Positions 3,001 to 19,900 of a stretch of 64,000 nucleotides of DNA are shown here, piece by piece. The notes beneath the pieces were generated by a model. That model had not been told where the DNA came from. It worked only from the letters and a program-made list of their open reading frames with translations, and did no database searches. The stretch is from Zootoca vivipara (taxonomy: Eukaryota). The stretch is taken from positions 41,044,001 through 41,108,000 of the forward strand of contig NC_083279.1 of NCBI RefSeq assembly GCF_963506605.1, given 5' to 3'. Numbering within the stretch: the first letter of the stretch is position 1; every line of letters starts with the position of its first letter. The position numbers and the translations under genes were made by a program.

Positions 3001-3130
3001 AAACATTAAGTCATTCTGAGTATGACCAACATTGAATTCCATCCATAAGGATCAGTATATATTCTTTTCTTTTGCTCCCTGGCCTTATGACAGACACCCT
3101 GAAGTCCAATTAGTATTGAGAAGATGAGGG

Positions 3131-3221
3131 ATAGAATCATAGAACTGCAGATTTGAAAGGGACCCCAAGAGTAATCTAGTCCAACCTCCTGCAATTCTGG
3201 AATCGTGCCATAGCTGTCCCT
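3131..3221 (-). mobile_element. CR1-type 3' tail (CR1 fragment or CR1-tailed SINE, Squam2-like)
   Basis: ATAGAATCATAGAA...GGGACCCCAAG...TCTAGTCCAACC is the reverse complement of the CR1 3' terminus with its (ATTCTATG)n tail. Confidence 0.75.
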
Positions 3222-3445
3222 GGTTATATTAATTTTTGTCCTGTTTTTCTGGCCCTGAATTTATAACAGAAGCTGCAGCTCTGATGCCCTCATTCTGAGA
3301 AATCAAGTTGTTTTGATTTTCCTCTCTTAACTAGGACAGTCCCTCGTATTTGCCTCAGGCTATTTTTTTATTTTGCTCTCAGAAGCAATCAGTCTTCTGC
3401 TATTTATCAGTAGCCTCTAGTCCACTGCAGAAAAGCTCATGAGTA

Positions 3446-4687
3446 GAGGTTCCGGTTTCCGCCTGCAGGAATGGCGGACCTGTTTTCCATCTCTCTGACC
3501 TTTGTAAGGAATTTGGCGGTTGCTAGGGGAGTAAATGGCAACCCCCTACCCTCTCCGGGGGTTACGGAGAGGGGCCGCTGGCCCGCGATGCCCCCAGACC
3601 CACTCCGACTGTTTTTGGAGTGGGGGGAGCTTGGGCTGAGCACTTACAAGGGCCAGGACTCCCGGACGCTAATCTGCATGGCGGGGATTTCCATGGTTAA
3701 AGAAGATAATTAGGCTTAAATCTATGGACATACTTCAGAAGGAGGGAAAGAAGCGCTGTTTACTGCTGAGAAATTTATGCTGCCGAGTGAGAGGAGTCAA
3801 AGATTGTACTGCATCTGGAAGAAGGATTGATGGGGACGGAGCGATAAGGGGAGTGAGTTTTTATTTTATTTTTTTTCTTCATATTGTTGCCTCGTACCTT
3901 CCCGGACGCGATGTCCTGGCTTGTTTGGAGTGAAAGAGAAGCAAAAGACTGTGTGAGTTGAACCTTATAACTGTTGTTACTGAGCATATTTTTTTAAAGA
4001 TGTGGAGTTGCCGATGAGAAAAGCCCCCCCCTAGTCGGACGGAAGGAGTTCTGAATGCGTTCGGAGGATTTATGAGCTGTGACGCACTTTAAATTGGAGC
4101 AGCGACCTGAAGCTAAGTTCAGCTATAGGGCAAGGAGATCCATTAATTTACCAAGAGTCTATGGTTTGATGTTTGGGTCTCCTGCCTGGAAAAGCTGTAA
4201 ATTCTATAATGATCGTAAATTTTCATGGCCATGAGAGGAAAGCGAAAGTGATTTGAGCTTTTTAAGATGGCGCTACTTCGAATTGCTTCAACGCAACAGG
4301 AGCTCCATTAAGAAGATTTATGGGGAGGCTGGACTGATTAACTCACACAGGAGAAAGAACATCTGTGAGACTTTGTTTGATATTTATATCAGCAGCTGGG
4401 AAACAATCGTGAAAGTGGAAAACATCTTTGTGACTGTAAGGGGAAGATCTGGATTATTATGAACTTGAAGGACGATTTGAACTTTAGAAAAAAGACGGCA
4501 GTGGACAGTTGCGAGGAATTCCCAATTTCTTGAAGCATGGGAACCCAAATAAAAAATTCTTTAGATGATTTGGCATAACATTCGGTCTGATTGATATATA
4601 TATGTGTATAATTTGAAATATTGAATGTGATATAATTGGTTTTAATTGGAAAATTAATAAAAATATTTTTAAAAAAAAAAAAAAAAA
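3446..4687 (+). mobile_element. Non-autonomous poly(A) retroelement, probably L1-derived or L1-mobilised, about 1.24 kb, no long ORF
   Basis: Perfect 15-bp TSD AAAAGCTCATGAGTA (3431-3445 and 4688-4702); AATAAA at 4656-4661; A-tract 4671-4691; CpG-rich 5' end with ATGGCG (YY1-like) motif. Confidence 0.85.
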
Positions 4688-5533
4688 AAAAGCTCATGAG
4701 TAAACATTTGGATGTTATGGTTTAGAATTGGTTACAAAATTATTATTTCAAGTTCAGTCCAATTTGGGACACACTTGGTGATACCATACCTGAATATCAC
4801 ATATTGACCATACATTTAGATATGACGAAAAGTGTGATAACTAAAGCTACATTCCTGGCAATGCAGCACCAGTATATTACAATATTTCCTGGCTTCTGAG
4901 CTTTCTTCCTGCATTAATTTATACTTATGCATTATTTTGTGTATTTAGAATTAGTATAAATTTCTGATTTACATTTGTAGGGCATCAATGTGAGCGGGTG
5001 GGGGAAGTAGTCAGAGACATTCCCCAAAGGAAACCGAGTAAGCTGCTGATGTCTAAAGTGGTATTAATCACATTCCCTCAAAAGAGATTTGCTCAAAGAA
5101 TTGCATGCCTGACTGATTTTTAACTTTGTAACTGGAATGTATTATGTGATATAAATGCCTGATCTTTGGTCAATAAGGATTCCCTTACATTATGATGCTA
5201 TACCTTTCTCACAATGCATTTTGTGCCAAACTATTACATGCCAAACTATGGAGCATATTGAAAACAATCTAGGAAACAAGGCAGTTTTATTCAGAAGTTG
5301 CAGAATGGGAAGAAAATATATATTTAAGAATTCTGGCAAATACTAAAGAACCAAATACATCACACCACATAGCATGAGATACTGTCTAAATAAAACAGTT
5401 GTCCATTCTTTTTTTCTCAGAAAGAATTGATTAGGGACTTCTAGCAGTAAGATCTTCATTGCTCAGAAATGCACTCTTTCTATGTATTTTTAATCTATTG
5501 GGAAGTCATGATCCAGTTAAATCTGTTATATAA

Positions 5534-16265: not shown

Positions 16266-16992
16266 TTGTTGTTTAGTCGTTTAGTCGTGTCTGACTCTTC
16301 GTGACCCCATGGACCAGAGAACGCCAGGCACTCCTGGCTTCCACTGCCTCCCACAGCTTGGTCAGACTCATGTTGGTAGATTCAAGAACACTGTCCAGCC
16401 ATCTTGTCCTCTGTCATCCCCTTCTCCTTGTGCCCTCAATCTTTCCCAACATCAGGGTCTTTTCCCGGGCGTCTTCTCTTCTCATGAGGCCCTATGGCCA
16501 GGCTGGGTGGCGCAGGGCGCCAGGGCGCCCGCCCACCCGCCGCGGAGCTGCACCCCCAGCAGCTGCGCTGTGTGCTGCGCTCGCTCGCCCGCCAGCCCGG
16601 CCACGCAGCTCCGCCCGTCCGCCGCACTGGAAAACGGGGCGGGGCAGGGCGCGGGCGCCGGAGGGATCCGTCGCACCAGGGCGCCAAATATACTTAAGAT
16701 GGCCCTGATGAGGTGGCCAAAGTATTGGAGCCTCAGCTTCACGATCTGTCCTTCCAGTGAGCACTCAGGGCTGATTTCCTTCAGAATGGATAGGTTTGAT
16801 CTTCTTGCAGTCCATGGGACTCTCAAGAGTCTCATCCAGAACCATAATTCAAAAGCATCAATTCTTTGGTGATCAGCCTTCTTTATGGTCCAGCTCTCAC
16901 TTCCATACAACACTTCTGGGAAAACCATAGCTTTAACTATACAGACTTTTGTCGGCAAGGTGATGTCTCTGCTTTTTAAGATGCTGTCTAGG
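16266..16992 (-). mobile_element. BovB (RTE) LINE 3' fragment, 5'-truncated, interrupted by a MITE
   Basis: Translation TKVCIVKAMVFPEVLYGSESWTIKKADHQRIDAFELWFWMRLLRVPWTARRSNLSILKEISPECSLEGQIVKLRLQYFGHL is the BovB ORF C-terminus; 3' tail GAGTCAGACACGACTAAACGACTAAACAAC. Confidence 0.95.
16490..16707. mobile_element. GC-rich hAT-like MITE inserted into BovB, left TIR deleted
   Basis: Interrupts BovB at CTCATGAGGTGG; ATGAGG is duplicated (16484-16489, 16708-16713); right end AGATGGCCCTG is the exact inverse of CAGGGCCATCT, which begins the related copy at 63852. Confidence 0.8.
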
Positions 16993-19900
16993 AATACATG
17001 TCAAATAAATGAAGGCTTCTCAAGGTTTTTTCAGAGTACTGAAAATCCAAGTACTTTTAGATGTGCAATCAAACTTTCCTGCCCTCTCTCTCCATTGTAA
17101 AAATGTTCAGGGGGTTAGGGGTTGAGGAAGCCCTCATAACACATTTAAGGGCCACACAGGGGGCTCATGGAGAGAAGAAAGGTGGGAAGGTCCTCTGCAC
17201 AGCTAAAATTATTTGTGCTGGCAACTGCTGAGTTTGATATTGCTCTGCAACTCAGCCTAACCTCATAGAGTAGTGATGGTGATGAATATAATTTTTCACT
17301 ACCCTGTGACGTGGGTCAGGCTGATAAAATTTCTTATTCAGCTTTCGCCATAAGACAGGGTGGGCTACAACAATGTAAAAATAACCAAAAAAATCAGTTA
17401 AAACAATTAACAAGTCAAAAGAAAATGGCAGGTTCTAAAAACACATATCTCAGACATCAAAGGACAGGGTAAATGGGCTCATCTTCAGCATATGACAAAA
17501 ACATATGCAGTGAAGGTGTCAGACACTAAGAGCTCATTAGAGGAAAGGTAAAAGGTAGAAATGTACCAGTAATAAAGAGATATATAGTATGTGTCAGGGC
17601 ATGGCATTTTAAAATATAGGACATCTTGCTCACATGGCCCGTAGGTGGCTGACAAAGAATCAGCAAACAATTAGACTGTGGAAATGATGTCTGGGAACAC
17701 AACCAAAGTATACAGTGTGATTTTGAACAAATGCACTTTAGATGAATAAATTGGTTTCCTGCAAAACAGACAAACAAAAATGGAATGTGAAAATGCAGAA
17801 ATATAACCTCTGGAATAACAGCAAAATTTCCTCAGTGAGAAAGCTCTTGTTCAAATTTGCTGCTGATAGAACAAGATACAGAACTTGCTGCTTATAAAGG
17901 TTAATTAATTCATATTATTCATAACTAGAAGCATGCCTATAAGTACTTGAAGGAAGGTTATAATAGACAGAAAGACATAAACAATCATACAAGGACTAAA
18001 ATAACTACATCATGAAGAACATAAAAATGGAGAAGGGTTTTCTCTAGCCCTCTACTTTTTGCATAATGTGGAAGTATACTTATTTTTTTAAAAAAAATAA
18101 AAGATTTTTTAAATGAAGAGCTCCTGTTTTAGAGCCAATCCTTTATCCAGCTACTTTTCTCTTGACTCAAGCAGATGCAAGAATATGTTCTAAGAGAAGG
18201 GTGTAAAAGCATGAGAAACAGGAAACAGAATCTGACCGTGTGTCATTCAGAATCTATATAGTTTTTAAGGTTAGAGATATACCGTAAGCTTTTTATAATA
18301 ATAATAATATTGATGATGATGATGTGTTAGGCCAAGTTTGTCTCACAAATCTAAAAATGTTGCTTTAGGGGTCAGGTTCTATGGCTAAAAGAGGATTTTT
18401 TTATTTTATAGCCACAGAGAATAACCAAGGTGCAAAAAAAAAAACCCTTTAAAGTCTTAGCTTATCCTTAACAGTGCTCACCTCATAAAGAAAAAGAGTT
18501 AAGGTTAAGAACAATGTTACATTTACATTACAAAAAGTAATTTTATCCCACCGATAAAGTGTAAGGGTAAACGTTTATAAGCTTTATAAACCTTTATAAA
18601 CTTTATGGGGGCCAAATGCTCATTAAAACATCTCTAAATGAGTGTTGCTTAATAATCATTCAGCCAAATAAGTTTTGGCAGAGCCTTGAGTGGCCTGATA
18701 ATTTCATGTAAAAATAAAATAAACATACATAATTGTGCCTAGTTTCGGTTTTTCCACCCATGAGTCACTTGTACTTGGCCTAAGTAAAAAACCCAACATC
18801 ACATTTTGAAACAATGTGCCAGTCGTTTTATTTGAGTCCCAAGGTGTAGCTGAAAACACAACACACGAATGTAGCCCTTTTCAGGGGTTATGCCTCTCAC
18901 ATAATAGGGATGTGTGTGATGGTTGTTTTTTAAAAAATGTATGGACATTTGCATTTATGTATTTTAAATGTATTTTCTCAATAGTGACATTTCTTACTCA
19001 GACTCAGAAGTAAGTTTTGTTAAGATTAGATGGCCACCTGCCATCAATGCTTCAGTTGAGATTCCTGCAATGCAATTCCTGCAATTCCTCCCAGGTAAGA
19101 GGGTACAATTCCCCCCCCCCAAATGCACATTTCCAAACATACCTAAAATGTACTTATGCATATTATTTAATACTTCTTTGAGCCAAGAACTGTCAGGAAA
19201 TACAACCCCACCCTGTAAATTCCAACCTGTGTGTTAGCCTAAATTGATGCCAGTCAAGTCAGCTCACGAAAGTTTAGAATTCTTCAGGCGCATTTTGCCC
19301 AACCTTTGGCATTTCCTTTACATATACTCAGTAGGTGCTCTTGCGGTTTTTGAGCAGGGCATTGTTATTACTATTATTAGGCCCAATACATTTTTCTGCC
19401 TGAGCAGAGGATGAGGATGGCACCATTCCACCTACAGAATCCAACTAGATTGACAGTAGCATCTTTCTTCAACAACAGCAATCGGACAACATTCTCCTCT
19501 GGTCTTGAGAGCAGCTGGCTAGTTTAGGGAGTGCAGATCAGGCTAGCTTAGGGGACTGAGGAGGAAGGGTGAAGGCTGCTGCTTCCCCCAGCATATGGCC
19601 CTAACCCATCTGCCACACTTTCTGAACGGTGATGGTGATAATTCAACCTAGCCTCTCTACCAGTCCTGTCTTCATTCATATGGACTGTTGGGAAAGCCTT
19701 ATTAGAAAATAAGGTTAGAATTAAAAACAAGGTTAGAATTGAACTTGCTTCAGGAGTCTTGACTGATAAACACTAATAAAGTCAATGTTTTGTGTTATTA
19801 GTATATGTGCTTATCAAAGTTTTAAAAATATTCATTTGATTCTTAATTGGCAGCATTTGAAAGCCAGCTGCTGAGTTAGTTCTAACAATATGCTTCATTC

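Follow-up and report, generated by a model that had tools for sequence, protein, structure and literature searches.

ORF-absent elements of the SIDE type are known from several LINE clades. They include the R2 SIDE (PMC3414825) and Persaeus, which comes from CR1 (PMC6740152), and RIME, NARTc and the Vingi and RTE derivatives have been listed as bipartite ORF-absent LINEs (PMC5786205). In the list given by the latter paper, the only sources of ORF-absent forms are RTE, Ingi, Vingi and R2, with HAL1 retaining ORF1; the form derived from CR1 was added by PMC6740152. According to PMC3414825 and PMC5786205, SIDEs of L1 had not been reported. The first of these attributes their absence to the cis preference of ORF2p, and the second raises the question of whether sampling bias accounts for the restriction of SIDEs to four other clades.

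Here we describe an ORF-less insertion in a 64,000-nucleotide stretch of Zootoca vivipara DNA (contig NC_083279.1), called the window below, together with its relatives in the same genome. Our best explanation, to which we give a probability of about 0.7, is that the insertion belongs to a polyadenylated, multi-lineage family without ORFs, one likely derived long ago from a clade-1 L1 and likely dependent on the L1 proteins of the genome for its copying in trans.

The element has much in common with the SIDEs: no ORF, 5' and 3' ends that are probably of LINE type, a fixed length, its own target-site duplications (TSDs) and presumed transcription by Pol II, with the difference that its partner is L1. 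Like Persaeus it has a middle without clear source, but its length of 1.2-1.45 kb exceeds the roughly 0.3 kb of Persaeus, and whereas the ends of Persaeus are 71-99% identical to those of its LINE, the element shares only motifs and a fold with L1. In our best reading the family behaves as SIDEs (bipartite non-autonomous LINEs) do, its membership being incomplete as parent and junction were not found. The HAL1 elements of mammals are, as this family likely is, non-autonomous L1 derivatives with L1-type ends (PMC5753468, PMC5786205), but they encode ORF1p, whereas our family has neither ORF1 nor a trace of it and is not a HAL1 family. The lizard clade-1 L1s (PMC5381506) share with the element a TTCCG...ATGGC start, a GC-rich head with an array of hairpins, a TGGAAAA-AATAAA end and TSDs of about 17-18 bp; the element differs from them in having no ORFs, one fifth of their length and a body that cannot be aligned to theirs. 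SpIREs (PMC5860796) resemble it as shortened L1 RNAs reinserted with L1 hallmarks, but they retain ORF2 and are called dead ends, whereas the ORF-less lineages described here still amplify; no splice junction was identified in the element. SVA and LAVA (PMC5753468) are likewise long and non-coding, with subfamilies and polymorphic insertions, and depend on L1 as the family very likely does, but SVA is assembled from pieces of Alu, VNTR and ERV origin, none of which was seen in the element. The squamate SINEs (Sauria, Squam1-3) are also non-autonomous, with many complete copies. However, SINEs are defined as shorter than 1 kb, with a head derived from tRNA, 5S or 7SL RNA and transcription by Pol III (PMC3531059), and the element exceeds 1 kb (1,223 nt), lacks such a head and contains internal oligo-T runs, which bears out an earlier remark that it is too long for a SINE.

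The open literature gave no description of the family or of an ORF-less L1 SIDE; as Repbase, Dfam, subscription journals and supplements were outside the scope of this search, a library entry for the family may exist. We propose tentatively, and with a little under even confidence, that no vertebrate superfamily of this kind has been found before: retroposons derived from L1, ORF-less, long-lived and high in copy number. It would be a Pol II "L1 SIDE" that still exists although its parent L1 family is gone, with three or more active lineages, and it would overcome the cis preference of L1 via a structured 5' RNA domain that the L1s of lizards also conserve. An L1 SIDE in about 1,000 copies, with insertions that are recent and polymorphic, would counter the reported absence of L1 SIDEs and would be a natural reagent for studying how a Pol II RNA obtains L1 proteins in trans. 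The element has conserved ~200 nt of 5' hairpins and a short 3' terminus and lost all else, which suggests what the minimal set of cis signals in lizard L1 may be, and the comparison with the element exposes a covarying 5'UTR fold in lizard L1s. Polymorphic full-length insertions of the family are also usable as population markers.

Anatomy of the insertion

All features lie on the forward strand. The element body, an ORF-less member of the youngest subfamily (A), occupies 3448-4670 (1,223 nt). It stands between two copies of a 15-bp TSD, AAAAGCTCATGAGTA, at 3431-3445 and 4688-4702, of which the 5' copy is the single one present in the empty allele. The perfect TSD claimed in an initial annotation of this DNA is real: at up to one mismatch these are the only two matches in the whole window, and 0 of 100 shuffles gave such a pair. 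The insert of about 1.2 kb that it proposed also stands, with the correction that the start is 3448 (GGTTCCGG) and that the two nucleotides at 3446-3447 (GA), between the TSD and the start of the family sequence, are a variable tag, such G/A-rich tags differing among copies. The AATAAA (at 4656) and the 21-nt A tract (4671-4691) are both present as annotated, the final 4 nt of the tract being common to the TSD.

Within the body, the 5' terminal motif TTCCG...ATGGCGG (3448-3477) resembles, with other spacing, the lizard clade-1 L1 5' consensus GACTTCCGGTGN8ATGGCG (PMC5381506). It opens a GC-rich 5' domain (3448-3650), which by its variability is the most conserved part of the element and is predicted to fold into several hairpins. 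Predicted hairpin 1 (3519-3542) has a two-sided change from U-A to C-G in lineage H; hairpin 2 (3549-3573) has a predicted 9-bp stem and a GGGGTTA loop, of a type and at a position common to L1 5'UTRs; and hairpin 3 (3599-3624), predicted within a longer enclosing helix, has a two-sided change in H and in some copies of lineage G. A fast-evolving middle follows (3651-4370), about 200 nt of which are duplicated in lineage H. It contains a YY1-like AAGATGGCG (4264-4272) that all lineages retain, the label being based on the CAAGATGGC site in PMC5381506. The 3' region (4371-4670) has a terminus that is probably of L1 type, with TGGAAAATTAATAAAAA at 4647-4663 and then a variable T run.

The longest frames in the insert are 100 aa from stop to stop and 80 aa from ATG, in agreement with the annotated absence of any ORF above 102 aa, and a Pfam search with its 80-aa and 75-aa frames gave no match. 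The 80-aa 5' frame was considered as a gene and rejected: besides the lack of a Pfam match, it has 13 non-synonymous against 5 synonymous codon changes between A and G, and in lineage H a stop after 11 codons. Many CpGs are intact, as noted before (observed/expected 0.70 in the insert against 0.25 for the window). The claimed absence of tRNA and 5S boxes also held, in that a tRNA scan and a B box search of the insert found none and an Rfam search gave nothing better than E 0.29. The element has one loose A-box-like pattern (at nt 25) and 10 runs of at least 4 T, the first at nt 36. Judged from its sequence, transcription by Pol III is unlikely, because there is no B box and the T runs begin so early.

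A family with fixed ends and its own target sites

The window insert is confirmed as a member of a real multi-copy family with fixed ends and its own TSDs. In the genome searched for copies (1.44 Gb, 48 contigs), the best 40 of 1,443 candidates from a DNA search with the element were all full-length, at 99-100% identity. Its first 32 nt occur exactly 533 times and a 28-mer of its 5' end 959 times at up to 3 mismatches, against 0 for the reversed-pattern control of each; searches with the 5' and 3' ends gave 1,153 and 1,280 first-look candidates, which are not copy numbers. Roughly, we put the family at 1,000 copies. On contig C1 all 52 exact 5'-end matches (40 loci fetched, and 12 full-length copies from earlier searches) are of the 1.2-kb form. 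Among the 40 fetched, 39 are continuous copies of 1.21-1.24 kb and the remaining one is complete but interrupted by a nested LINE, and none of the 52 continues into an ORF. Since this sample was chosen by its intact 5' end, it holds no information on the share of truncated copies, which do exist (L143, L144, L166).

An exact TSD is present in 69 of 70 family copies (11-26 bp, median 18), as compared to 12-20 bp (median 17) in 17 L1 insertions of the same genome (p 0.14; three of the 20 L1 loci were omitted, their flanking repeats confusing the TSD call). T occupies position -1 of the TSD in 46/69 family copies and 11/17 L1s, and the TSD start is purine-rich in 61/69 and 14/17. With these 17 L1s as the reference, the poly(A) tail, the L1-length TSD and the pyrimidine/purine nick site are all present in the family, which is very likely mobilised by L1. 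Between 1 and 5 extra 5' nucleotides were found in 35 of the 69 copies (41 G, 19 A, 10 T, 3 C); from general L1 biology, these may be a copied cap or scatter of the start site. The genome search that had been suggested therefore returned many copies of about 1.2 kb with one 5' start and differing TSDs, and this establishes a family.

Some copies depart from the standard form. L142 (635-2716; G000:C1:24532200 onward) contains a nested, 5'-truncated non-L1 LINE of 2.1 kb, which has an open RT frame of 534 aa and terminates in TAAG repeats. L113 was considered as a template-switch chimera, which was rejected, the locus being a full copy divided by a nested non-L1 LINE. At the 3' end of L009, some 30 nt of foreign sequence and then another A tail precede the TSD, which probably reflects a 3' transduction; L119 has a tandem duplication of the first ~19 nt of the element at its 5' end; and L160, a copy of lineage G, is missing nt ~358-797. 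Rare internal skips also occur in contigs and reads. Two pairs of 5' ends lie 3-6 kb apart, at G000:C2:67360365 (+) / 67363487 (-) and at C2:36531998 / 36537697, and are possibly clustered or nested insertions.

Recent activity, lineages and transcription

The window insertion is recent and polymorphic, and the family has been recently active. A check for an empty site in other individuals had been advised, and in sequencing run X10, from another sample, a 470-nt contig maps to 3308-3442 and then to 4700-5034, joining 3442 to 4700 as the exact empty allele with one copy of the TSD. A contig of run X1 passes through the junction into the element, and contigs of run X2 end at the TSD, consistent with the empty allele, without bridging the site.

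Subfamily A, which holds the window copy, has a mean internal distance of 0.33% (8 copies) and subfamily B one of 0.23% (6 copies); the two are 4.4% apart, and older groups of the family are up to 9% away. Two further lineages were reached through variant strings in RNA reads. Lineage G (78 pattern matches, 30 fetched) is colinear with A over 1.24 kb at ~78% identity, or about 20% divergence, with internal distances averaging 3.1% and falling to 0.16% (26 copies). Lineage H (15 matches) is 1.45 kb long, has 68-70% identity at its two ends (the first ~500 nt and the last ~360 nt), carries an internal duplication of ~200 nt and has an internal distance of 1.0% (9 copies). TSDs and A tails are present in both, and the longest frames in any of 105 copies are 87 aa from ATG and 125 aa from stop to stop. 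The best reading is an old, still-active, multi-lineage retroposon without ORFs. As the ORF-less unit has diverged by ~30% and several sources are concurrent, one source gene would not explain the family; young lineages that coexist at 4-30% from each other argue against retrocopies of one source locus, and we rejected that candidate. An ancestral origin in a host gene may still be compatible with the data. Variant strings at 3627, 3684, 4066 and 4233 in RNA reads suggest further sister lineages.

Family sequence occurs in RNA, mixed with read-through from flanks. Three RNA runs gave 2,131, 1,203 and 1,359 reads per ~7.5 million on a 2.1-kb stretch, mostly on the element; the reads on the element are mostly alleles of other subfamilies and come from both strands. 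Reads entering at 3448 from varied flanks numbered 101, 43 and 81 in the three runs, and no pile-up of read starts at 3448 was listed in them.

Relation to the L1s of the genome

Among the best 150 of 15,956 L1 candidates, many have an open ORF2 of 1,244-1,266 aa. These ORF2s contain RT and endonuclease domains, and the named proteins closest to the L1s of the genome are from Podarcis. From these 150 we fetched 20 near-intact loci. Against them only the terminal 35-70 nt of the element aligns (best E 6e-4; z up to 6.7 with 30 shuffles, the stretch being AT-rich and short), so that colinearity with an L1 3' end, named earlier as a result that would speak for ordinary truncation, is absent among these 20 L1s. 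Sequence-only nhmmer between element and L1 returned nothing in either direction. No direct autonomous parent or deletion junction was found among the 20 L1 loci or 14 loci with the hairpin pattern, a sample that is far from exhaustive. HMM, tblastn and frameshift-tolerant alignment found no trace of ORF1 in the element, and no remnant of either ORF1 or ORF2 came up with profiles of the two, with a DNA profile or with frameshift-tolerant alignment, the scores being equalled by 12-83 of 100 shuffles in 12 settings. A PF02994 search gave no match in the genome, nor in its controls, and a homolog search using an old L1 piece gave no matches. Possible ORF2 remnants picked out by eye (WLK..L..D.L..EG, a zinc-knuckle-like motif, KWK) were rejected, as they scored 29.4 against 26.2 +/- 2.7 for shuffles (maximum 34.4) and key codons are missing from older lineages; a weak similarity between nt 383-440 and two L1 5'UTRs was likewise dropped, being absent in G and H. 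When true L1 families with at most 61% ORF2 identity are compared, the 5'UTRs of 56 out of 58 pairs can no longer be aligned past nt 250. At such divergence a missing alignment of the element body to L1 is therefore expected, and the lack of a match or remnant is weak evidence against an L1 origin.

At the 3' terminus, TGGAAAA-N-AATAAA is found in 6/6 element consensuses and 8/20 L1s. In the background it accompanies 4 of the 866 AATAAA sites, and these four include one family copy and one apparent L1 end. The L1 3'UTR motif GGRRGTC, present in 20/20 L1s, occurs among the element lineages only in H, where it lies 110 nt before AATAAA.

At the 5' end, variable columns number 2-7 per 100 in the first 200-300 nt against 32-43 at the peaks of the middle. 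The predicted fold of this domain has a z of -2.6 and 98.5% of cells pair; three pairs have two-sided changes, from few events, a count also reached by 40 of 500 shuffles. The L1 5'UTRs have a similar hairpin series in which 20 of 39 predicted pairs have two-sided changes, a strong covariation. We note that the first ~250 nt of the clade-1-type L1s L082, L085, L088, L091, L092, L094, L095, L098 and L099 share a covarying multi-hairpin fold, of which our literature search for the lizard clade-1-type 5'UTR found no description. A hairpin with a GGGGTTA-type loop and a stem of at least 7 bp lies at nt 110-131 in 8/15 L1 5' ends; its position in the elements is nt 110-112. In shuffles it occurs in 1 of 5,000 (exact loop) or 7 of 5,000 (loose), a p-value to be read as post hoc because we had noticed the motif by eye and counted it afterwards. 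Both strands of 708 kb of background contain 0 exact and 4 loose cases. A search with the hairpin-core pattern gave 27 matches against 77 in its control, and the 14 fetched were one H copy and 13 unrelated loci. The 5' start of lineage H is exactly the L1 GACTTCCG.

Two covariance models, R1 and R2, were built from L1 sequences only, and R3 is the reciprocal model. The best match of R2 is the sense 5' domain in 16/16 element loci, with 14.5-21.2 bits in G, 10.8-12.9 in A-F and 9.4-10.8 in H, compared with 24.2 for a held-out L1 and at most 10.7 for nine unrelated loci; the matches across element loci are weak (E 0.004-1.4), the best being G copies at 21 bits. The window copy itself scores 12.6 bits (E 0.24) with R2, third in the window after chance matches of 17.5 and 12.9 bits, and 8.1 bits (E 1.9) with R1, below a chance match of 11.7 bits in the window. 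With R3, four L1 5' domains rank first to fourth in 93.5 kb (E 0.16-1.6), and three other full-length L1s gave no match. Taken together, motifs, hairpin, covariance models and 3' end provide moderate evidence of L1 ancestry. The 5' domain of the element is likely homologous to the head of the L1 5'UTR, and an L1 origin of this head seems to us quite probable. Region 3448-3650 is predicted to be an internal promoter, which is likely, and its hairpins are likely a selected cis element, acting as promoter DNA or as RNA structure.

Origin and mobilisation

The initial annotation read the insert as a non-autonomous parasite of L1, and the family, the empty site and the absence of both results that it set against this reading support it. 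We consider the family likely to be L1-derived, by loss of both genes. Pol II would start at the element's own 5' end and the RNA would be polyadenylated at AATAAA; L1 ORF2p would then pick up the capped, polyadenylated RNA in trans, and its endonuclease would nick at Y/purine-rich sites, where reverse transcription would begin on the A tail and leave TSDs of ~18 bp. Most copies of so short an element would be finished, keep the promoter and be able to found new subfamilies, mostly complete and promoter-bearing copies being expected because the element is short. These steps are reconstructed, as only the products of insertion are observed.

L1 could also have mobilised the family without being its source: a Pol II non-coding RNA or the 5' region of a host gene (SVA-like, lncRNA-derived) would have become self-propagating, its L1-like ends being due to convergence or to the acquisition of a short L1 tail. 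Host promoters commonly carry TTCCG and ATGGCG motifs. In addition, there is no sequence-level alignment to L1 beyond the last 35-70 nt, lineages A-F and H score weakly with the covariance models, and the middle 700 nt have no known source. Against this account, the hairpin loop has the type and position of L1 5'UTRs, all 16 model matches fall on the sense 5' domain, and lineage H combines the exact GACTTCCG start with GGRRGTC 110 nt before AATAAA; we consider it unlikely. Within an L1 origin, a HAL1-like (ORF1-only) intermediate or a spliced, SpIRE-like L1 RNA could replace a single DNA-level deletion, an account that overlaps our best reading and differs from it in route. L1 has given rise to HAL1s more than once (PMC5753468), L1 RNAs that have been spliced do retrotranspose (PMC5860796), and the length of the element is about that of an L1 5'UTR (0.9-2.0 kb) plus 3'UTR. 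However, ORF1 left no trace by HMM, tblastn or frameshift alignment, SpIREs are described as dead ends with weak promoters (PMC5860796) whereas the family has many young lineages, and the junction cannot be placed without the parent; we consider this route rather unlikely.

That the mobiliser is a different autonomous LINE (a clade-2 L1, Tx1 or other) rather than the sampled clade-1 L1s is very unlikely in our judgement. The full reading covered just 20 L1 loci, all from one broad group, and other LINEs are present in the genome, but TSD length, nick context and the 3' terminal motif fit clade-1 L1, and the other LINE that was seen has TAAG repeats at its end in place of poly(A). A TSD and poly(A) taken alone would also be compatible with an ordinary 5'-truncated L1 or with retrocopies of a single source gene. 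This explanation is largely refuted and we give it hardly any credence, given the fixed 5' start in 52/52 C1 matches (selected on that start) with no run into ORFs, and the lack of colinearity with L1 3' ends. The case of spliced exons of a single-copy gene, which the annotation had named, has against it several simultaneously young lineages 4-30% apart.

Other features of the window

Just upstream of the insertion, 3100-3195 is a fragment of a different abundant repeat on which reads and contigs pile up. Further along, 16285-17000 contains an open frame broken by a GC-rich insert, and this frame presumably resembles the C-terminus of an RTE/Bov-B ORF2.
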